From: a virus
Length of the DNA stretch: 5,429 nt
Direction: 5' to 3' (one strand)
IMG/VR virus record: IMGVR_UViG_3300009391_000094
Span: 1-5,429 of that record
Within the stretch, counting starts at the first letter, position 1, and each line of letters begins with the position of its first letter. The notes below the pieces were generated by a model that worked only from the letters and a program-made list of their open reading frames with translations, was not told the DNA's origin and did not search any database. Below are positions 1 through 5,429 of this stretch, in pieces. Position numbers and translations under genes: made by a program.

Positions 1-127
1 AAATATTTTTACTAGTAAATCTTTAGATATATATACAGAAACATTTATTGTAAATAAAATAGCATTAGCTTCTTTTAGTTTAAGGATACATGAACAAAAT
101 TCAGCTTATTGTATTTATGGTGGTCAA
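1..127. repeat. Terminal overlap copy 1 (circularisation signature)
   Basis: Base-by-base identical to 5303-5429. It lies inside an open reading frame that continues seamlessly across the junction. Confidence 0.97.
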
Positions 128-940
128 GGTGTGGGAGGTATAAGTTCAAGTTCTTCAAGCAAATTTACTCCTATTAATTGGACTATATATGAACATATGA
201 TACCACAATCAGATTCTTCTACTATATCTGTAAATATATCATCAGATGCAGGTGTATTAGATGGAAATTTTAATCCTGACGATACTGAACCTATAATGTT
301 ACCGCCACCATTTTTTCCTGATATAAATTTAAAAGAAAGAACTAATTCTGACGGAAGTATATCAAAATATTTTGATGGTACTATTGATGATTATATGGGT
401 AATGTTGCTGATAATAATACTTATTCTGATGTCGAAACATATTTACAAACAGGTACAAACACAACTTCTTTAACTGATACAGGTACGGGAACTTTAACAG
501 TAGGAGATTTTAACGTAGATGGTTTACCATATCCAGAAGTTGGTACATCTGCTCCAACTGATGTTTTAACAGGTATAGGAGGTATAACAGGATTATTACA
601 AGGAATAACAAATTGGATTGCAAATTTATTAAAAACTTTAACAAATATATTTGTAATACCTACAGATTTAGCATTAAATTTTGATAGTTTACGTCTTGTT
701 GATTTTAGAAATAAATTTCCTTTTAGTATACCTTGGGATTTATACAATGCTATAAAATCATTTGCAAATTCTCCATCAACACCTAATTTAGCTATTGATT
801 TAGATACTCAATATTTTTCAGTATATCAGCCTATTGATTTATCAAGTATTAGTTTACCAATAGCATTTGCAAGATATACATCAGTTGTATTTTTTATAAT
901 ATTCTTAATTTCAAAAACAAGAGATTTTATAAAATGGTAG
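2..940 (+). CDS. C-terminal part of the same pIII-like protein (2-127 duplicates 5304-5429; unique part is 128-940)
   Basis: The frame is open from base 2 and in phase with 4782-5429 (648 nt = 216 codons, next codon at 128). Gly/Ser/Thr-rich linkers are present (GGQGVGGISSSSSSK; TGTNTTSLTDTGTGTLT). The C-terminal hydrophobic anchor YTSVVFFIIFLIS is followed by basic KTRDFIKW. The GTG at 131 used by the ORF track is an internal codon. Confidence 0.65.
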   Translation, partial: NIFTSKSLDIYTETFIVNKIALASFSLRIHEQNSAYCIYGGQGVGGISSSSSSKFTPINWTIYEHMIPQSDSSTISVNISSDAGVLDGNFNPDDTEPIMLPPPFFPDINLKERTNSDGSISKYFDGTIDDYMGNVADNNTYSDVETYLQTGTNTTSLTDTGTGTLTVGDFNVDGLPYPEVGTSAPTDVLTGIGGITGLLQGITNWIANLLKTLTNIFVIPTDLALNFDSLRLVDFRNKFPFSIPWDLYNAIKSFANSPSTPNLAIDLDTQYFSVYQPIDLSSISLPIAFARYTSVVFFIIFLISKTRDFIKW

Positions 941-949
941 GAGGTTAAT

Positions 950-1207
950 ATGTTAATTAGTGGTTTATTCTTTGTTATAAATAAAGTAATAGAATTAGTT
1001 GGTTCTGTAATTTCTATATTGTATAATCTACTTCCAACTTCACCTTTTAGGATTATAGAAAATTCTCAGTTTTCGGATCTAATTTCTCAGATAAATTATT
1101 TCTTGCCAATTTATGAATTTGTTTCAATAATGGAAACCTGGCTTGTGTCTGTTGGAATATTTTATTTATACAGCATTTTTGCAAGATGGATAAAAGCAAT
1201 TGAATAG
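950..1207 (+). CDS. Small hydrophobic membrane protein, pVI-like minor coat candidate (85 aa)
   Basis: GGAGG at 940-944 overlaps the upstream TAG stop. Hydrophobic segments are LISGLFFVINKVIELVGSVISILYNLL and WLVSVGIFYLYSIFARWI. It lies between the pIII-like gene and the pI-like gene, as gVI does in Ff. Confidence 0.5.
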   Translation: MLISGLFFVINKVIELVGSVISILYNLLPTSPFRIIENSQFSDLISQINYFLPIYEFVSIMETWLVSVGIFYLYSIFARWIKAIE

Positions 1208-1218
1208 GAGGTATTTAT

Positions 1219-1878
1219 ATGATTTGGTTATATAGTGGTACACCTGGTAGTGGTAAGAGTTATCATGCAGTTTATAAAATTTATTATAGATTGAAACAAA
1301 AAAAATTTAATAGAGTAATTGCAAATTTTGAATTAAATTTCCCTGGTGATTTAGATAAAAATTTAACATATTGGGATAATTCCGAAGTTACCATTGATAA
1401 ATTAATTGAATTTGATAAAAAAAATCATGTTTCAATGATAGAGGGCCAAACTTTGGTTGTATTAGATGAAGCACAAATTCTTTTTAATTGCAGAGATTGG
1501 GGAACAAATTCTAAGCTTAGAATGTCTTGGATAAAGTTTTTTAGTCAGCATAGAAAATATCATTTCAATTTTATTTTAATTTGTCAATTTGATAAAATGA
1601 TTGATAAACAAATACGTTCTTTGGTCGAGTATGAAGTTTCACATATGAAAATGAATAATTTTTTTTGGTTTTTACCATTTTCATATTTTCTATGTATAGA
1701 AAGATGGTATGGCCAACGTATGAAAATATCGCATGAGATAATACGTTATACCAAGAAAATATCAAATTTTTATAATTCTTATAAGACATTTGATGATAAA
1801 AAAATTGATGATAAAACAAGCGAATTGGAGCAGAGGAGCGATAGCGAGGAATGCTCTAATTCGCTTGTTTCTATTTAA
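1219..1878 (+). CDS. Zot / pI-type P-loop NTPase, filamentous-phage assembly ATPase (219 aa)
   Basis: AGGAGG at 1206-1211. The N-terminal MIWLYSGTPGSGKSYHAV carries a Walker A motif (GxxGSGKS) at the extreme N-terminus, as in the Zot family. Walker B-like TLVVLDEAQ is present. A hydrophobic stretch FFWFLPFSYFLCI follows the NTPase core. Confidence 0.88.
   Translation: MIWLYSGTPGSGKSYHAVYKIYYRLKQKKFNRVIANFELNFPGDLDKNLTYWDNSEVTIDKLIEFDKKNHVSMIEGQTLVVLDEAQILFNCRDWGTNSKLRMSWIKFFSQHRKYHFNFILICQFDKMIDKQIRSLVEYEVSHMKMNNFFWFLPFSYFLCIERWYGQRMKISHEIIRYTKKISNFYNSYKTFDDKKIDDKTSELEQRSDSEECSNSLVSI
1814..1870 (+). other. Long hairpin (19-bp stem, 19-nt loop) inside the 3' end of the ATPase gene; candidate ssoA-like minus-strand origin, packaging signal or terminator
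   Basis: 1814-1832 pairs with 1852-1870 (18 Watson-Crick pairs plus one G-T at 1827/1857). The loop 1833-1851 is gaggagcgatagcgaggaa and contains TAGCGA (1842-1847) and a 17-nt perfect mirror repeat (1834-1850). This is the most GC-rich patch of the gene. T-rich sequence follows. Confidence 0.6.
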
Positions 1879-1919
1879 AATTATTTATAAAAATATTTAT
1901 AAAATATTAAAAAAACCTC

Positions 1920-1948
1920 TTGACACCTAGACGTCTATATGTTATAAT
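1920..1948 (+). promoter_or_regulatory. Consensus sigma-70/sigma-A promoter with extended -10 and an operator-like palindrome in the spacer
   Basis: TTGACA (1920-1925), a 17-nt spacer, then TATAAT (1943-1948), with TG at 1940-1941 (TGnTATAAT). An AT-rich tandem TATTTATAAAA repeat lies upstream (1882-1904). The 10-bp perfect palindrome TAGACGTCTA is at 1928-1937. Confidence 0.75.
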
Positions 1949-1983
1949 AAGTTATAAATAAAAAACACCTGGAGGTAATAAAA

Positions 1984-2175
1984 ATGTTAGATTTTTATGA
2001 AAGTATTTTAGATAATGTTAATGAATTTATTTATGAAATTAGAAAAGAAAATGATAAAACTATGAAAGCTATAATTGCAATAAAAGGTAAGCAATATGTT
2101 AATGAATGTTTATTTAAAAATGAAATTACGTTAGAACAACATACAGAATTAAGAAATTTAATTACTAATAGATAA
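1984..2175 (+). CDS. Hypothetical small protein (63 aa), no recognisable motif
   Basis: GGAGG at 1971-1975, 8 nt before the ATG. It is the first gene downstream of the consensus promoter. Confidence 0.7.
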   Translation: MLDFYESILDNVNEFIYEIRKENDKTMKAIIAIKGKQYVNECLFKNEITLEQHTELRNLITNR

Positions 2176-2207
2176 AACATAAATTTTAATATATAGGAGG
2201 TTTTAAA

Positions 2208-2414
2208 ATGTATGATAATTATATGCAAATTGAAATTAATGAAACTCTATTAAATTGCAAAACAAGTTATGATAATATTTTAGAAATGAAAGTTTTTAAT
2301 AATCATTTGTTTATAAAAGATATTAATGATTGGTCGACAAATATAGAAATTAATGAAAAAGTAGTAGTTACAGTAAATTTCTATAATTATGATGAAGAAG
2401 ATTATAATTATTAA
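2208..2414 (+). CDS. Hypothetical small protein (68 aa) with an acidic Tyr-rich C-terminus, no recognisable motif
   Basis: AGGAGG at 2195-2200, 7 nt before the ATG. It is in the same operon as 1984-2175. Confidence 0.7.
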   Translation: MYDNYMQIEINETLLNCKTSYDNILEMKVFNNHLFIKDINDWSTNIEINEKVVVTVNFYNYDEEDYNY

Positions 2415-2482
2415 ATTTATCAAATAAAACAATTAATTTAATGGTTTGCGGTAAACCATAAAACCGCTTAGGAGGCTAATAT

Positions 2483-2677
2483 ATGGAAAAATCTAAATTT
2501 ACACTACGTGTTGATAATGAAATACTTAAAGATATGAAAATATTCGCTATACGTCAAAATATGCCCTTAAATGAAATGTTAATACAATGTTATGATATGT
2601 ATAAAAAAAAATATGAGGCTATACAAAATGGTGACATTTTACCAAGTGTTGAAGAATTGGAGGTTGACGACTTTTAA
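2483..2677 (+). CDS. Ribbon-helix-helix (CopG/Arc/MetJ-like) DNA-binding protein (64 aa)
   Basis: AGGAGG at 2470-2475. The N-terminal KFTLRVDNEILKDMKIFAIRQNMPLNEMLIQCY fits a beta-strand / helix / helix RHH layout. It sits upstream of a pMV158-type rep, as copG does. Confidence 0.65.
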   Translation: MEKSKFTLRVDNEILKDMKIFAIRQNMPLNEMLIQCYDMYKKKYEAIQNGDILPSVEELEVDDF

Positions 2678-2810
2678 CCCTAAAAAAAAATAAAAAATCG
2701 TAAGACTATTGGAACCGATAAAACCCGCAGACGTACCGAAGTACTTTTGGAACGCGTAACTTAAAAAAAAGGTAAATAACTCTAACTTAACAAAAAAATT
2801 GAAATTTTGA

Positions 2811-2825
2811 GCGAGCTAGGCTCGC
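2811..2825 (+). other. GC-rich hairpin GCGAGC-tag-GCTCGC in the origin region
   Basis: A perfect 6-bp GC-rich stem with a 3-nt loop, about 40 bp upstream of the nick hairpin. No adjacent T-run on the + strand, so it is not a canonical terminator. Confidence 0.5.
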
Positions 2826-2864
2826 AAATGATGTATTTTTTAAAAAGGTTTTTAAATTTTTTTG

Positions 2865-2890
2865 TGGGGGGGAACTACGACACCCCCCCA
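2865..2890 (+). promoter_or_regulatory. Predicted double-strand origin (dso) nick hairpin of the pMV158 type
   Basis: T-G7 (2865-2872) pairs with C7-A (2883-2890). The 10-nt loop aACTACGACa resembles the remembered pMV158-family nick sequence TACTACG/AC followed by a C-run. The predicted nick is between G2879 and A2880 on the + strand. Confidence 0.7.
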
Positions 2891-2892
2891 TG

Positions 2893-2913
2893 TGTTCAGT
2901 GTTCACTGTTCAT
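2893..2913 (+). repeat. Three tandem 7-bp direct repeats TGTTCAN (candidate Rep-binding iterons)
   Basis: TGTTCAG (2893-2899), TGTTCAC (2900-2906) and TGTTCAT (2907-2913), starting 3 nt after the nick hairpin. Confidence 0.7.
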
Positions 2914-2977
2914 TGAATTGATTATTTTGGGTAATTAAAAACAGTAAATATTAAGAACTGTGAGGTAATTATATTAA

Positions 2978-3595
2978 ATGTCTGATAAAAAAGCAACAAC
3001 TAGAACTAGGAATTTTGCTACAGTAGTTTACTTGGATAGTGCTCCATCAGATTGGCAAGAAATATTACAGTCATTTTGTGTTCAATCTTTTATTTCTCCT
3101 TATCATGATAAAGATTTAAACCCTACTGGAGAGGTTAAAAAGTCTCATTATCATGTAATGATGATGTATGATACTGTTAAAACTATTGAACAGGCAACTG
3201 AAAATTTTAAAAAAATTGGTGGAGTTGGATGTGAAATAATAAATTCTACTAGAGGTTATGCAAGATATTTATGTCATTTGGACAACCCAGAAAAACAACA
3301 ATATTCTCAAGTTGATGTAAAATCTATTTGTGGTGCTGATTATGTTGGTATTATAGGTTTAGTGACAGATAAATACATAATAATGGGAGAAATGCAGGAC
3401 TTTTGTGAAAAATATAATGTAGTATCATTTTATTTACTTTGTAATTATGCTAGGAAAAATCGTTCTGATTGGTATAGGTCACTTTGTGATAATTCATCTT
3501 TTTATATGAAAGAGTATTTAAAATCTAAATTATGGTCACAAGATAGTAAAAATAATCAAATAATTGATTTAGAAACTGGCGAGGTTATAGGGTAG
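2978..3595 (+). CDS. repB: Rolling-circle replication initiator, HUH endonuclease of the pMV158 RepB (Rep_2) family (205 aa)
   Basis: GAGG at 2962-2965. By eye it aligns with RepB of pMV158: RNFATVVYLDSAPSDW vs RYFTFLLYPESIPSDW; ISPYHDKD vs ISPLHDKD (metal ligands); SHYHVMM vs AHYHVLY (HUH, His57/His59, codon 3146-3148 = His57); GYARYLCH vs MYLYLTH (catalytic Tyr candidate Tyr97, codon 3266-3268). Confidence 0.88.
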   Translation: MSDKKATTRTRNFATVVYLDSAPSDWQEILQSFCVQSFISPYHDKDLNPTGEVKKSHYHVMMMYDTVKTIEQATENFKKIGGVGCEIINSTRGYARYLCHLDNPEKQQYSQVDVKSICGADYVGIIGLVTDKYIIMGEMQDFCEKYNVVSFYLLCNYARKNRSDWYRSLCDNSSFYMKEYLKSKLWSQDSKNNQIIDLETGEVIG

Positions 3596-3613
3596 TTAAT
3601 ACTACCCTTTTTT
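3589..3613 (+). terminator. Intrinsic terminator for rep; the hairpin contains the stop codons of both convergent genes
   Basis: AGGGTAGT (3589-3596) pairs with ACTACCCT (3601-3608) around the loop taat, followed by T5 (3609-3613). The rep TAG is at 3593-3595 and the minus-strand gene stop is at 3602-3604. Confidence 0.7.
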
Positions 3614-3796
3614 GATATCATCAATGTCGATTTTTAAAATTTTAAGCATGTTTAAAAAAACATCAAAATTTTCAAGATGTTTTCCATTTATCCATCTACT
3701 AACAGTATTTACATTAATATTTAGCTTTTCTGCAAGCTCTTTAACTGTCAATTCGTTTTCCAACATAGCAATTTTAATTTTAATATGATTAATCAT
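3602..3796 (-). CDS. XRE / Cro-CI-type helix-turn-helix transcriptional regulator (64 aa)
   Basis: LTVKELAEKLNINVNTVSRWINGK is a classic HTH_3 motif. I place the start at ATG 3796-3794, because AAGGAG (3810-3805) lies 8 nt upstream of it. The GTG at 3805 used by the ORF track overlaps that Shine-Dalgarno. Confidence 0.85.
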   Translation of the reverse strand: MINHIKIKIAMLENELTVKELAEKLNINVNTVSRWINGKHLENFDVFLNMLKILKIDIDDIKKG

Positions 3797-3817
3797 ATTA
3801 TTCACTCCTTTAATTTA

Positions 3818-3865
3818 ATTATACCCCATTTTTACATATTATATGTCAAAATGTATATTAGTAAA
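3818..3865 (-). promoter_or_regulatory. Candidate promoter(s) for the HTH regulator gene
   Basis: On the minus strand, TATAAT (3843-3838) has TTTACT (3865-3860) 16 nt upstream. Alternatively, TTGACA (3849-3844) pairs with TATAAT (3823-3818) at an over-long 20-nt spacing. Both overlap the palindrome ACATAT-T-ATATGT (3834-3846). Confidence 0.35.
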
Positions 3866-3880
3866 TAAAAATGTTTAAAA

Positions 3881-3918
3881 CAATACATAAATGTATTGAC
3901 ATATACATTTATGTATTG
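3881..3918. promoter_or_regulatory. Two operator-like palindromes sharing the half-site ATGTATTG
   Basis: CAATACAT-aa-ATGTATTG (3881-3898, perfect 8-bp arms) and ATATACAT-tt-ATGTATTG (3901-3918, 6 of 8 symmetric). Their centres are 20 bp apart. They cover the -35 and the spacer of the structural-operon promoter. Confidence 0.6.
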
Positions 3919-3924
3919 TATAAT
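3896..3924 (+). promoter_or_regulatory. Consensus promoter of the structural (virion) operon
   Basis: TTGACA (3896-3901), a 17-nt spacer, then TATAAT (3919-3924), about 30 nt upstream of the ATG at 3954. Confidence 0.75.
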
Positions 3925-3953
3925 AAAGAAAATATATTTTATAGGAGGTAATT

Positions 3954-4208
3954 ATGCGATTTGAAGAGAAAAAAATTATAACAGGCATAACACGAAAAGT
4001 GTCTAAAAAAACTAATAAAGAGTATACTATGGCAAATTTCCTAAATGATGATGGTACTTCTTTTTCAAGTTTAGTTGCTGATGGAGTTTTAATACCACAA
4101 GACATTAAACAATTATCACAAGTAAAAGTAATGTTTGAAGTAACTTTTTATAATGGTAATATTAACGGTCTTAGAACAGTTAATTTAGAGCTTTTAAAGA
4201 CGGCTTAA
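3954..4208 (+). CDS. Small beta-rich protein (84 aa), candidate pV-like ssDNA-binding protein
   Basis: AGGAGG at 3943-3948. Its size is close to Ff gVp (87 aa). It alternates hydrophobic and basic residues (ITGITRKVSKKTNKEYTMANF; VKVMFEVTFYNGNINGLRTVNLELL). It is the first gene of the structural operon, immediately before the tiny membrane proteins and the coat gene. The function call rests on position and size only. Confidence 0.45.
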   Translation: MRFEEKKIITGITRKVSKKTNKEYTMANFLNDDGTSFSSLVADGVLIPQDIKQLSQVKVMFEVTFYNGNINGLRTVNLELLKTA

Positions 4209-4211
4209 AAA

Positions 4212-4391
4212 ATGGAAACTTTAATAGACTATACATCATCATTTGCAGAAGTTAATAATTTGTTAGGTCAATTAATAACTTTACAAGCAAAATCAAATGT
4301 ATATTCTGAATGGATATTTGGTATAGAAGTTGCAATTTTCATTATTTCTATAGTTTTAATATTTGCAATATTCTTCTCCAATACAAGGTGA
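4212..4391 (+). CDS. Tiny membrane protein (59 aa), pVII/pIX-position minor coat candidate; not in the ORF track
   Basis: The ATG lies 4 nt after the upstream TAA, which suggests translational coupling; there is no clear SD. Product is METLIDYTSSFAEVNNLLGQLITLQAKSNVYSEWIFGIEVAIFIISIVLIFAIFFSNTR, with one C-terminal transmembrane segment. It ends at TGA 4389-4391. Confidence 0.5.
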   Translation: METLIDYTSSFAEVNNLLGQLITLQAKSNVYSEWIFGIEVAIFIISIVLIFAIFFSNTR

Positions 4392-4395
4392 TTTT

Positions 4396-4545
4396 ATGGA
4401 TTTACAAACAATTGAAACTTTAGCTAATTTCCATTGTCAACAAATTTTTAATGATGTTTCATTATCAATTTTAGAAATGTCATTTTTAATCGTAATTTTA
4501 TTATATTTTGCTTTGTTGGCTATGAGATTTCTTAAAGATATATAA
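4396..4545 (+). CDS. Tiny membrane protein (49 aa), pVII/pIX-position minor coat candidate
   Basis: AAGGTG at 4385-4390, 5 nt before ATG 4396. Product is MDLQTIETLANFHCQQIFNDVSLSILEMSFLIVILLYFALLAMRFLKDI, with one transmembrane segment and a basic tail. The ORF-track start at 4363 is a TTG with no SD and overlaps the previous gene. Confidence 0.55.
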   Translation: MDLQTIETLANFHCQQIFNDVSLSILEMSFLIVILLYFALLAMRFLKDI

Positions 4546-4571
4546 AAATTAAAATTTTTGGAGGTATTTAT

Positions 4572-4724
4572 ATGGATACAAATGCAGTAGTAACTGCCAT
4601 CACAGGTCAAGCATCAAGTTTAACATCAGACGCAGCTCCAGTAATAGCAGCTGCAATTGGACTTAGTGCATTATTCTTCGGAGCTAAATTGCTTTGGAGA
4701 AAATTTAGAGGCATGGCTTCATAA
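4572..4724 (+). CDS. Major coat protein candidate, pVIII-like (50 aa); not in the ORF track
   Basis: GGAGG at 4560-4564, 7 nt before the ATG. Product is MDTNAVVTAITGQASSLTSDAAPVIAAAIGLSALFFGAKLLWRKFRGMAS. It has a polar and slightly acidic N-terminal part, an Ala/Gly-rich hydrophobic helix, and a basic C-terminus (K, R, K, R) suited to contacting DNA. A strong terminator follows. Confidence 0.75.
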   Translation: MDTNAVVTAITGQASSLTSDAAPVIAAAIGLSALFFGAKLLWRKFRGMAS

Positions 4725-4734
4725 AAGCCAAATT

Positions 4735-4762
4735 AAAAGAGGTGGCTTACACCTCTTTTTTT
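4735..4762 (+). terminator. Rho-independent terminator after the coat gene
   Basis: The stem AAAAGAGGTG (4735-4744) pairs with CACCTCTTTT (4750-4759) around the loop gctta. The T-run extends to 4762 (7 T after the GC core). Confidence 0.85.
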
Positions 4763-4781
4763 AATTTATAGGAGGTAATTT

Positions 4782-5429
4782 ATGTATAATAATAAATTTA
4801 TTTTAATTATCACAATTTTATTAATTATAAATTCAATAATAACACCTGTTTATGCTATTGATAATTCTTTTGCATCAGTTTTTGGAGGTAATGGTAAAGA
4901 GGCTCTAGCATTTATGACTGTAGTTACTGGTTTAGGATTAACTTTTGCTAGTCAATCAGATGCAGTTGCAGTTTATAACGAATTAAAAGAAACAGCTCCT
5001 TTAGTTATTCAAAATATGGTAGCTATAACAAAATCTACTTGGTTAGGTGCTTATAATACTGTTAGTAATGAATTAATTTCTGTAAAAAATTCTGTATATG
5101 ATTATTTATTAAGTAAGTTTGGAACTGTTACAAGTGGTTTAAATATATCACCGTCAACTAATATAAAAGGTAGTATTTTAGATGGTAATACTACTTCTTC
5201 ATTTGAAAATATTAGTACAGGAACATATTCACATTATAATAAATACGGTTCTATAAGAGCAACATTAACTAATTATAATGAAACACAATTAAAAATTACA
5301 TTAAATATTTTTACTAGTAAATCTTTAGATATATATACAGAAACATTTATTGTAAATAAAATAGCATTAGCTTCTTTTAGTTTAAGGATACATGAACAAA
5401 ATTCAGCTTATTGTATTTATGGTGGTCAA
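4782..5429 (+). CDS. N-terminal 216 codons of a pIII-like minor coat / host-adsorption protein; continues at base 128 after circular closure, 486 aa in total
   Basis: GGAGG at 4771-4775, 6 nt before ATG 4782. The frame stays open to the window end, which is why the ORF track omits it. The N-terminus MYNNKFILIITILLIINSIITPVYA/IDNS looks like a Sec signal peptide with an AXA-like cleavage site. It sits directly after the coat gene and its terminator, as gIII does in Ff. Confidence 0.65.
   Translation, partial: MYNNKFILIITILLIINSIITPVYAIDNSFASVFGGNGKEALAFMTVVTGLGLTFASQSDAVAVYNELKETAPLVIQNMVAITKSTWLGAYNTVSNELISVKNSVYDYLLSKFGTVTSGLNISPSTNIKGSILDGNTTSSFENISTGTYSHYNKYGSIRATLTNYNETQLKITLNIFTSKSLDIYTETFIVNKIALASFSLRIHEQNSAYCIYGGQ
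5303..5429. repeat. Terminal overlap copy 2 (circularisation signature)
   Basis: Identical to 1-127. The length of 127 nt is typical of a de Bruijn assembler k-mer overlap. Confidence 0.97.

Follow-up and report, generated by a model that had tools for sequence, protein, structure and literature searches.

A 5,302-base circular genome joining a CAK1-like filamentous-phage morphogenesis module to a pMV158-type rolling-circle replicon

We analysed the IMG/VR virus record IMGVR_UViG_3300009391_000094 over positions 1 to 5,429, a stretch of 5,429 nucleotides (nt) that is called the window below. The window was found to be a complete circular genome of 5,302 bases. It combines a module of structural and assembly genes, arranged as in the filamentous Clostridium phage CAK1, with a rolling-circle replicon of the type known from the streptococcal plasmid pMV158. 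This gene content makes it very probable that the element is an episomal filamentous phage (order Tubulavirales) with a low-GC Bacillota host. The circle carries 12 genes, is 85% coding and has a GC content of 26%. Eleven of the genes lie on one strand and only that of a repressor on the other, and the GC skew is positive over nearly the whole circle, with a single local dip at the repressor gene. The positions of all features are listed in Table 1. A preliminary description of the same DNA had read it as a minimal inovirus-like genome with the gene order of the Ff phages.

The first 127 nt of the window are repeated without a mismatch at its end, which leaves a unit of 5,302 bp. On the circularised sequence, an open reading frame (ORF) of 486 amino acids (aa) spans the junction in frame, from 4782 to 940, with GGAGG 6 nt upstream. 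Both the overlap and this ORF had been pointed out in the preliminary description, and both were reproduced. A second public contig, JGI Ga0111547_1000790 from sample 3300007908 (locus L093), is 5,401 bp long, encodes an identical gV-like protein and has a terminal repeat of 99 nt. Overlaps of 127 and 99 nt match commonly used de Bruijn k-mer sizes, so that an overlap by itself would be a software signature. The assembler might then have produced the repeat from a sequence that is linear or contains repeats, leaving an incomplete genome. We consider this extremely unlikely: the contigs break at window positions 1 and 1366, the latter inside the Zot gene, yet their 5,302-bp units are identical (0 mismatches). 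An ORF is restored across each junction, and the 486-aa gene is uninterrupted in the second contig. Two assemblies with different overlap lengths and breakpoints thus give the same unit, which confirms the circle. A divergent relative (L004, from Logan SRR15035647; 73-90% nt identity) is also collinear with the window round the entire circle, and its own ends join through an overlap of 30 nt.

The assembly module includes a pI/Zot-type morphogenesis ATPase. It had been named in the preliminary description, and profile searches bore this out, with 58 bits against Pfam PF05707 (cut-off 20.3) and E-values of 3e-22 against PHROG 197 and 2e-14 against PHROG 1675, 'protein I of M13'. The profile of its family matched PDB 2R2A at 1e-10. 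Every other structural or assembly gene listed earlier was present as well, in the order gV-gVII-gIX-gVIII-(terminator)-gIII-gVI-gI of the Ff phages (M13, f1 and fd) and, gene for gene, in that of CAK1. As in Ff, the structural, assembly and replication genes share one strand, the coat protein has 50 aa with an acidic N-terminus and a basic C-terminus, and pI has an N-terminal P-loop. The likeness to Ff held for this module and failed for the replication and regulation third of the genome, which had not been described before. The window differs from Ff in having a RepB-type initiator instead of a gII/gX-type one, no gIV secretin, a coat protein without signal peptide and a repressor-operator switch. 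A Pfam profile search of the ORFs gave no match to a secretin or other outer-membrane protein.

The nearest cultured counterpart is CAK1 (OX639564, 6,557 nt), a filamentous particle from Clostridium beijerinckii, which is likewise low in GC (28.5%). Its annotated genes run in the same order as those of the window: Rep, divergent regulator, single-stranded DNA-binding protein (SSB), small transmembrane (TM) proteins, coat, g3p, 85-aa g6p and g1p. Its g6p and its g1p/pI (38% identity) were found to be homologous to the corresponding window proteins. CAK1 differs in a larger Rep of another type, annotated as phiLf G2P-like, and in an extra FtsK-like 'assembly-export' gene that is absent from the window.

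We analysed the remaining structural proteins individually, and estimated selection from the ratio of nonsynonymous to synonymous substitution rates (dN/dS) between the window and L004. The small protein in the gV position had been described as OB-like, that is, similar to an oligonucleotide-binding fold, and AlphaFold2 (AF2) confidently modelled it as a five-stranded barrel of this kind (pLDDT 92.4). The nearest PDB folds were RPA, the mitochondrial SSB Rim1, PriB, SSB and LEF-3 (TM-score 0.5-0.68, E about 1e-2), and a search of a viral fold library returned mostly unnamed matches. No sequence match was found in Pfam, PHROG, NCBIfam or PDB, nor any BLAST similarity to the CAK1 SSB. The predicted fold and the gene position suggest that this protein may bind single-stranded DNA (ssDNA). 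The 50-aa protein matched PHROG 1859, 'major head protein' (6.6e-5), while its match to Pfam Inovirus_capsid was not significant (E 0.81). It has acidic residues towards the N-terminus (D2, D20), a hydrophobic core and a basic C-terminus (K39, R43, K44, R46), and homologues occupy the equivalent position in L004, L006, L008 and L014-L021. Homologues of the 59-aa and 49-aa TM proteins were found in L004 and L006. A TM segment is present in each of the proteins of 59, 49, 50 and 85 aa, which fits the set of short (30-90 aa) structural proteins with a single transmembrane domain (TMD), a major coat protein among them, that is expected of an inovirus. A terminator scan found 4 terminator-like sites in the window against 0.8 expected.

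The 486-aa pIII-like protein begins with a hydrophobic stretch at aa 6-24 that ends ...PVYA/ID and reads as a signal peptide by hydropathy. It had no profile match in Pfam or PHROG, and its homologues adjoin pVI/Zot in L004, L006, L008 and L014-L018. Its dN/dS of 0.53 marks it as fast-evolving, as expected for a receptor-binding protein. The 85-aa membrane protein is the counterpart of CAK1_09, which is annotated as a g6p-like minor coat protein, and its gene adjoins Zot in 77/80 genome loci. The core genes are under purifying selection (0.05-0.3), with dN/dS values of 0.05 for pI, 0.09 for pVI, 0.09 for gV, 0.27 for the coat, 0.21 for Rep, 0.18 for the ribbon-helix-helix (RHH) gene orf64 and 0.29 for the repressor.

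The initiator of replication was found to belong to the RepB family of pMV158. It matched Pfam Rep_OBD (PF01719; 2e-40) and RepB_C (2.7e-12), and aligned with RepB of PDB 3DKX over aa 8-176 (7e-11). All five catalytic residues are kept: H43, D46, H57, H59 and Y97 align with the RepB metal ligands His39, Asp42, His55 and His57 and with the catalytic Tyr99 (roles from PMC5030251). About 100 nt upstream of rep, a T-G7/C7-A hairpin with an 8-bp stem (2865-2872 / 2883-2890) presents AACTACGACA in its loop, including ACTACG/AC, and the tandem heptamers TGTTCAG, TGTTCAC and TGTTCAT follow immediately 3' of the hairpin at 2893-2913. RepB of pMV158 nicks TACTACG/AC in the loop of the IR-I hairpin, which is flanked by 7-bp proximal direct repeats (PMC1851628). 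The nick motifs of the window and pMV158 agree at 8/9 positions (AACTACGAC and TACTACGAC, respectively).

The distribution of the motif ACTACGAC follows that of the initiator. It occurs once in the window, where 0.03 copies are expected. Across 12 loci, one + strand copy was found in each of the 5 that encode RepB and none in the other 7. In 5/5 RepB-encoding relatives it lies in a hairpin loop, and the stems covary (GGGGGAG/CTCCCCC, CTGGGGC/GCCCCAG). The heptamers that follow differ between relatives (TGCTCAA, TGATCA, TGGCCA). CAK1, with its other type of Rep, has no RepB-type origin (no ACTACGAC). These features make 2865-2913 a well-supported prediction for the leading-strand origin. The nick is predicted on the coding strand between G2879 and A2880, so that Rep would be expected to cut GGGGGGGAACTACGACACCCCCCC between G and A. 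A nick on this strand implies that, as in Ff, it is the + strand that would be displaced and packaged. The hairpin is found upstream of rep in the window (2874), L004 (751), L010 (643) and L012 (1120) and immediately downstream of it in two faecal inoviruses, L003 (1406) and L011 (2908), which suggests that the Rep-origin pair is rearranged as a unit with variable polarity. Between orf64 and the origin lies a conserved non-coding block (2698-2830). It contains a hairpin at 2811-2825 (GCGAGC-TAG-GCTCGC), in which L004 shows one compensatory change from G-C to A-T, and is a candidate for a lagging-strand origin or for a control region or RNA of rep.

The window shares with pMV158 the two-domain RepB (origin-binding and C-terminal domains) with its metal ligands and catalytic Tyr, the nick sequence in the loop of a G/C hairpin and the 7-bp direct repeats immediately 3' of it. 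The distal 11-bp repeats, the antisense RNA, ssoA and ssoU of pMV158 were not found in the window. The RHH gene lies upstream of the origin in the window and between origin and rep in pMV158, and the RHH-like matches of orf64 to Pfam DUF6364/HicB, which might point to a CopG-type control, were below threshold. Rfam and tRNA scans of the window gave no match. Where pMV158 has mob and tet, the window replicon carries phage structural genes.

This combination raises the question of whether the element is a rolling-circle plasmid of the pMV158 family that captured an inovirus morphogenesis cassette and has lost, or never had, the ability to make infectious filaments, being a plasmid, a defective phage or a helper-dependent, satellite-like element. 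The plasmid-type replication third (RepB, double-strand origin, a possible CopG-like RHH protein, no integrase), a pI without a classical TMD and the lack of CAK1's second, FtsK-like assembly gene would fit such a plasmid, and rolling-circle plasmids have been reported as satellites of inoviruses (bioRxiv 10.1101/2023.11.28.569023). We regard it as improbable. The structural and assembly set is full and tightly packed, has strong ribosome-binding sites (RBSs), and is under the purifying selection described above for pVI, pI, gV and coat. Hundreds of relatives of similar size typically have a TMD-poor pI as well. Rep_2-type initiators are, moreover, an established replication module of inoviruses, represented by the family iPF_00199.

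To place this probable filamentous phage, we searched for relatives at several levels. Zot homologues were found by tblastn in 48 records of GenBank phages, among them the faecal 'bajarodino' and 'Dulem' viruses (up to 47% identity), Vibrio and Thermus phages and CAK1. Propionibacterium phages were absent from the organisms listed at E ≤ 1e-3. Rep homologues in GenBank phages reached 59% identity, and in a blastn search nucleotide similarity to the same phages was limited to about 300 nt of rep. No relatives came up when IMG/VR was scanned with the single Zot protein, and an exact look-up of this protein gave no record. Of the 814 Zot homologues that a large protein search returned at E ≤ 1e-10, most have 190-260 aa, and many come from contigs of about 5.0-5.4 kb. 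In species-representative genomes, 141 loci were found, overwhelmingly from Bacillota (Lachnospiraceae, Oscillospiraceae, Tissierellaceae, Peptostreptococcaceae and Bacilli), with some from Coriobacteriia; many lie inside long chromosomal contigs, including those of cultured isolates. The closest matches (67%) were a 2.9-kb contig of 27% GC, binned with a metagenome-assembled genome of Bacilli, and a Tissierellaceae prophage. These closest relatives suggest that the host is a low-GC Gram-positive (Bacillota) bacterium. A low-GC host had been proposed from the GGAGG sites, and the counts agree: GGAGG occurs 12 times, always on the + strand, against 1.9 expected (0/200 shuffles reach 12), and 8/12 sites lie 6-9 nt upstream of start codons.

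Roux et al. reportedly catalogued more than 10,000 inovirus-like sequences in 2019. Their Supplementary Table 5 lists iPF_00199 as a Rep_2 rolling-circle initiator family with 71 members, and they note that inoviruses and plasmids freely exchange replication modules (PMC6813254). A study of pig faeces obtained 272 circular inovirus genomes from purified virion fractions and predicted Firmicutes hosts for most of them (PMC9723715), lemur viromes yielded 34 further inoviruses (PMC11281440), and Enterocloster inoviruses have been shown to secrete particles both in vitro and in vivo (PMC10061712). The faecal inoviruses from rodents (bajarodino), lemurs (Dulem, PMC11281440) and pigs (Inovirus sp. 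and the pig virome, PMC9723715) resemble the window in being circular, 4.2-7 kb long and equipped with a short Zot, and a subset has RepB-type Reps and a ACTACGAC hairpin origin. Firmicutes hosts were predicted in both virome studies (PMC11281440, PMC9723715). They differ in that nt similarity is confined to the stretch of rep noted above, several are much higher in GC, and their accessory ORFs are not the same; in L003 and L011 the origin lies on the other side of rep. The window thus joins a group that gut and environmental viromes had already brought to light, with hundreds of relatives in faecal viromes and as Bacillota prophages. The earlier statement that no close relative is evident holds for cultured phages, of which CAK1 is the nearest. 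As a claim of novelty it went too far, as did the word minimal, because uncultured relatives are numerous and published (PMC6813254, PMC9723715, PMC11281440, PMC10061712).

The genome size had likewise been described as near the lower limit for the group. Complete relatives in GenBank measure 4.2-5.3 kb and many close relatives sit on contigs of 5.0-5.4 kb, so we dropped the idea of a size minimum; 5.3 kb is typical for the clade. Reviews give 5-10.5 kb as the normal range of filamentous phages, and the window has the small circular genome with dense, short genes that is expected of an inovirus (about 5-10.5 kb). Genetic code 11 gave a complete, tightly packed gene set, and the 59-aa gene uses TGA as its stop, with only 4 nt left to the start that follows. 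Spiroplasma plectroviruses infect mollicutes that use genetic code 4, in which TGA is read as Trp. The gene set argues against Plectroviridae to this extent, and it excludes code-4 hosts only, not code-11 mollicutes such as Acholeplasma. Plectroviruses were also absent from the tblastn matches, which were Clostridium, Thermus and Vibrio phages and faecal inoviruses.

In many relatives the phage genes sit in a Bacillota chromosome beside a tyrosine recombinase (L006, L008, L014, L016 and others), and the circle might accordingly be an excised or tandemly duplicated form of an integrated prophage and not a free-living episomal replicon. This appears very unlikely, as no integrase, transposase or att-like repeat was found within the 5,302 bp and two assemblies close the identical circle without flanks. 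The integrated Bacillota inoviruses (Eubacteriaceae GCA_900066695.1 and loci of Tissierellaceae, Intestinibacillus and Blautia) and those of Enterocloster (PMC10061712) do share with the window the order of coat, pIII, 85-aa pVI and short Zot as well as a divergent helix-turn-helix (HTH) repressor. They differ in being chromosomal and in carrying, in every integrated relative examined, a tyrosine integrase and a different Rep (REP_ORF2-G2P type), whereas the window has RepB and no integrase. Insertion sequence elements with rve- or DDE-type transposases were seen next to or within the regulatory/SSB end of two integrated loci (L006 5914-7469 and L008 4576-6099), suggesting that some of these prophages may be decaying.

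A regulatory region was found between rep and the structural genes. The repressor matched Pfam HTH_3 (7.6e-9) and PHROG 3, 'transcriptional repressor' (4.5e-11), and is 46% identical to its L004 counterpart. In the putative late promoter, TTGACA (3896-3901) is enclosed by a palindrome and TATAAT (3919-3924) abuts it, with a 17-nt spacing and a perfect consensus. L004 keeps the hexamers and the RBS (~1740-1790), while its palindrome has diverged, as has its repressor. This parallel divergence suggests an immunity-type specificity region in a 5-kb phage. Promoter consensus matches in the window overall were no commoner than in shuffled sequence. We retained as putative promoters only the two perfect 12/12 sites and the site of the divergent repressor gene, and set all other promoter-like matches aside on this ground.

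One odd feature of the genome is a pI without a classical transmembrane segment. In a simple hydropathy scan, which is not a dedicated TM predictor, the maximum Kyte-Doolittle score of pI over 19 residues was 1.06 (threshold 1.6), against 1.9-2.9 for the phage's own membrane proteins. The same lack of TM-level hydropathy was found in 118/120 of the closest pI homologues. The pI of Ff, at 348 aa, has a C-terminal TM segment and a periplasmic domain; the window protein of 219 aa has neither a classical TMD nor this C-terminal TM/periplasmic (pXI) part. It does contain a conserved, Pro-containing hydrophobic segment at aa ~147-162 (NNFFWFLPFSYFLCI). In the corresponding region (aa ~147-172), between 'H.K.NN' and 'WYG', 17/90 more distant relatives reach 1.6-2.15 and CAK1 reaches 1.52; CAK1 pI also lacks a clear C-terminal TMD and has its hydrophobic segment at the matching internal position. 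The hydropathy of these relatives suggests that the C-terminal TMD of Ff is replaced in this family by an internal insertion whose hydrophobicity varies in strength. The segment may or may not form a membrane helix; the AF2 model, of medium confidence (pLDDT 69), places it with low confidence in a loop and β-hairpin.

The 3' tail of the pI gene contains the strongest single-strand hairpin of the genome. Its free energy was about -19 to -20 kcal/mol in 80- and 100-nt scans, with z-scores of -8.7 in the 100-nt scan and -5.4 when a 201-nt region was folded. The encoded C-terminal tail is non-conserved and predicted to be disordered (pLDDT <50), and the hairpin itself is conserved in L004 and L005. 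A tail hairpin stronger than any elsewhere in the ORF was found in 57/90 related loci, against roughly 1/5 by chance, in a set whose loci are not all independent and whose tails are somewhat GC-richer. Because the hairpin travels with pI whatever the type of Rep, we infer that it is a candidate late-operon terminator and/or packaging signal. It was also considered as an ssoA-type lagging-strand origin on account of TAGCGA in its loop, which resembles the CS-6 consensus, and was rejected as the nearest relative has AAGCGA. Taken further, these features could mean that the assembly machine of the clade is built differently from that of Ff, with a soluble or peripheral pI of ~220 aa that lacks the C-terminal TMD, pXI and a secretin, is coupled to the membrane through its internal hydrophobic loop or the adjacent 85-aa pVI-like protein, and works with a packaging signal in the pI tail that is linked to the assembly module and not to the origin. 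We offer this only tentatively and consider it rather unlikely as a whole.

Several points weigh against assigning the element to the filamentous phages. Roux et al. required their pI-like clusters to hold 1-2 TMDs (PMC6813254), and the window pI lacks TM-level hydropathy. The pIII-like and gV-like proteins and the two small TM proteins have no significant profile matches, and their roles were read from position, architecture and predicted fold. The nearest relative does not keep the operator palindrome. No lagging-strand origin was found with confidence in the window, and its CS-6-like TAGCGA, of the ssoA type, is not conserved. For this particular sequence the virion, the ssDNA state and the host are predictions.

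On the reading as an episomal filamentous phage, the life cycle may be pictured as follows. The + strand would be packaged in a sheath of the 50-aa coat protein, and the architecture and fast evolution of the 486-aa pIII-like protein suggest that it would mediate adsorption. In the cell, the host would turn the ssDNA into duplex at a hairpin origin, possibly in the 2698-2830 block or at the 1814-1870 hairpin. The RepB-like HUH protein would then bind the TGTTCAN iterons and begin rolling-circle synthesis of + strands by nicking ACTACG/AC in the loop of the extruded G7/C7 hairpin; for this step the motifs, catalytic residues and conservation were observed and the activity is inferred. The gV-like protein, with its predicted OB fold, would sequester the + strands. 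The pI/Zot ATPase, the pVI-like protein and the two small TM proteins would extrude the filament through a single membrane, for which no secretin would be needed. With the XRE repressor bound to the late-promoter palindrome, and possibly the RHH protein acting on rep, the element could persist in a quiet, plasmid-like carrier state without an integrase.

Gut viromes abound in filamentous phages that infect Gram-positive bacteria, but these have hardly been studied; to our knowledge, only B5, Philemon, CAK1 and a few Enterocloster phages have been characterised. The present genome leaves knowledge of the group unchanged, and its value lies mainly in a clean anatomy and in the question of how Gram-positive hosts export filaments with the help of a TMD-poor pI. 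It is a compact, fully resolved example in which nearly every base can be assigned, including the RepB nick site with its iterons, the repressor-operator switch over a consensus promoter, two terminators and the hairpin proposed as a candidate packaging signal. This makes it a convenient template for tests of how filaments are assembled across one membrane when there is no secretin and pI is TMD-poor, for the construction of phage-display or delivery vectors that are based on a pMV158-type replicon and meant for low-GC Firmicutes, and for the annotation of similar contigs of ~5 kb, of which public data contain many. The pMV158 family is described in one source as already in use for Gram-positive vectors (PMC8056398).

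Table 1 Features of the window, with coordinates in window numbering.
Feature	Position	Strand	Basis or remark
Terminal direct repeat	1..127 (= 5303-5429)		Assembly overlap of circular molecule; true genome is positions 1-5302
pIII-like protein, 3' part	1..940	+	C-terminal membrane anchor, aa 459-477
pVI-like small membrane protein, 85 aa	950..1207	+	Homologous to CAK1_09, E 2.5e-14
pI/Zot morphogenesis ATPase, 219 aa	1219..1878	+	Walker A GTPGSGKS; Pfam Zot, PHROG and PDB profile
Strongest single-strand hairpin of the genome	1814..1870	+	19-bp perfect stem, 19-nt loop, in 3' tail of pI ORF
Putative promoter, perfect consensus TTGACA-17-TATAAT	1920..1948	+	12/12 match, extended -10 TG; upstream of orf63-orf68-orf64-rep
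orf63, small soluble protein	1984..2175	+	GGAGG RBS; Pfam ParD E 0.006, below cut-off
orf68, small acidic protein	2208..2414	+	GGAGG RBS; dN/dS 1.35
orf64, probable RHH (Arc/CopG-like) DNA-binding protein	2483..2677	+	PHROG 3180 'Arc-like repressor' 6.5e-4
Conserved non-coding block, ~130 nt	2698..2830	+	High identity to L004, local GC rise
Predicted double-strand (leading-strand) origin	2865..2913	+	G7/C7 hairpin, nick motif in loop, three heptamers
Rolling-circle initiator, pMV158 RepB family, 205 aa	2978..3595	+	HUH endonuclease/origin-binding and C-terminal oligomerisation domains
Intrinsic-terminator-like hairpin	3589..3608		8-bp stem and T-run, between convergent rep and repressor
XRE/Cro-C1-type HTH repressor, 64 aa	3602..3796	-	ATG at 3796, AGGAG 8 nt upstream; divergent from structural operon
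Promoter-like site for repressor gene, TTTACT-16-TATAAT	3838..3865	-	10/12 match; putative
Putative operator and late promoter	3880..3924	+	Perfect 17-bp inverted repeat, 3880-3896 / 3903-3919
gV-like candidate ssDNA-binding protein, 84 aa	3954..4208	+	Predicted five-stranded OB-like barrel; position
59-aa single-TM protein, minor coat candidate	4212..4391	+	pVII/pIX position; TM at aa 35-53
49-aa single-TM protein, minor coat candidate	4396..4545	+	pVII/pIX position; TM; start agrees with L093 gene call
Major coat protein, 50 aa, without signal peptide	4572..4724	+	PHROG 1859, position, charge layout
Intrinsic terminator directly after coat gene	4735..4759	+	10-bp stem and T-run, as after gene VIII in Ff
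pIII-like adsorption/terminal cap protein, 486 aa, 5' part	4782..5302	+	Signal peptide, Gly/Ser/Thr-rich linkers

The small ORFs upstream of rep were less constrained than the core genes, with the exception of orf64. Searches of NCBIfam and PADLOC gave no match to the small ORFs; the repressor and Zot drew only generic matches or matches below the cut-off. The product of orf64 is probably an RHH DNA-binding protein and a candidate regulator of rep. For orf63 the dN/dS was 0.81, and for orf68 no match was found in Pfam, PHROG, NCBIfam or PADLOC. Given their near-neutral values and strong RBSs, orf63 and orf68 may be fast-evolving genes for host interaction or superinfection, or may be free of selection at the protein level. 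The order of orf68 and orf64 is swapped between the window (2208-2677) and L004 (171-730), which are otherwise collinear, and the L004 homologue of orf68 lies between the conserved non-coding block and the origin. This arrangement suggests a small mobile cassette.

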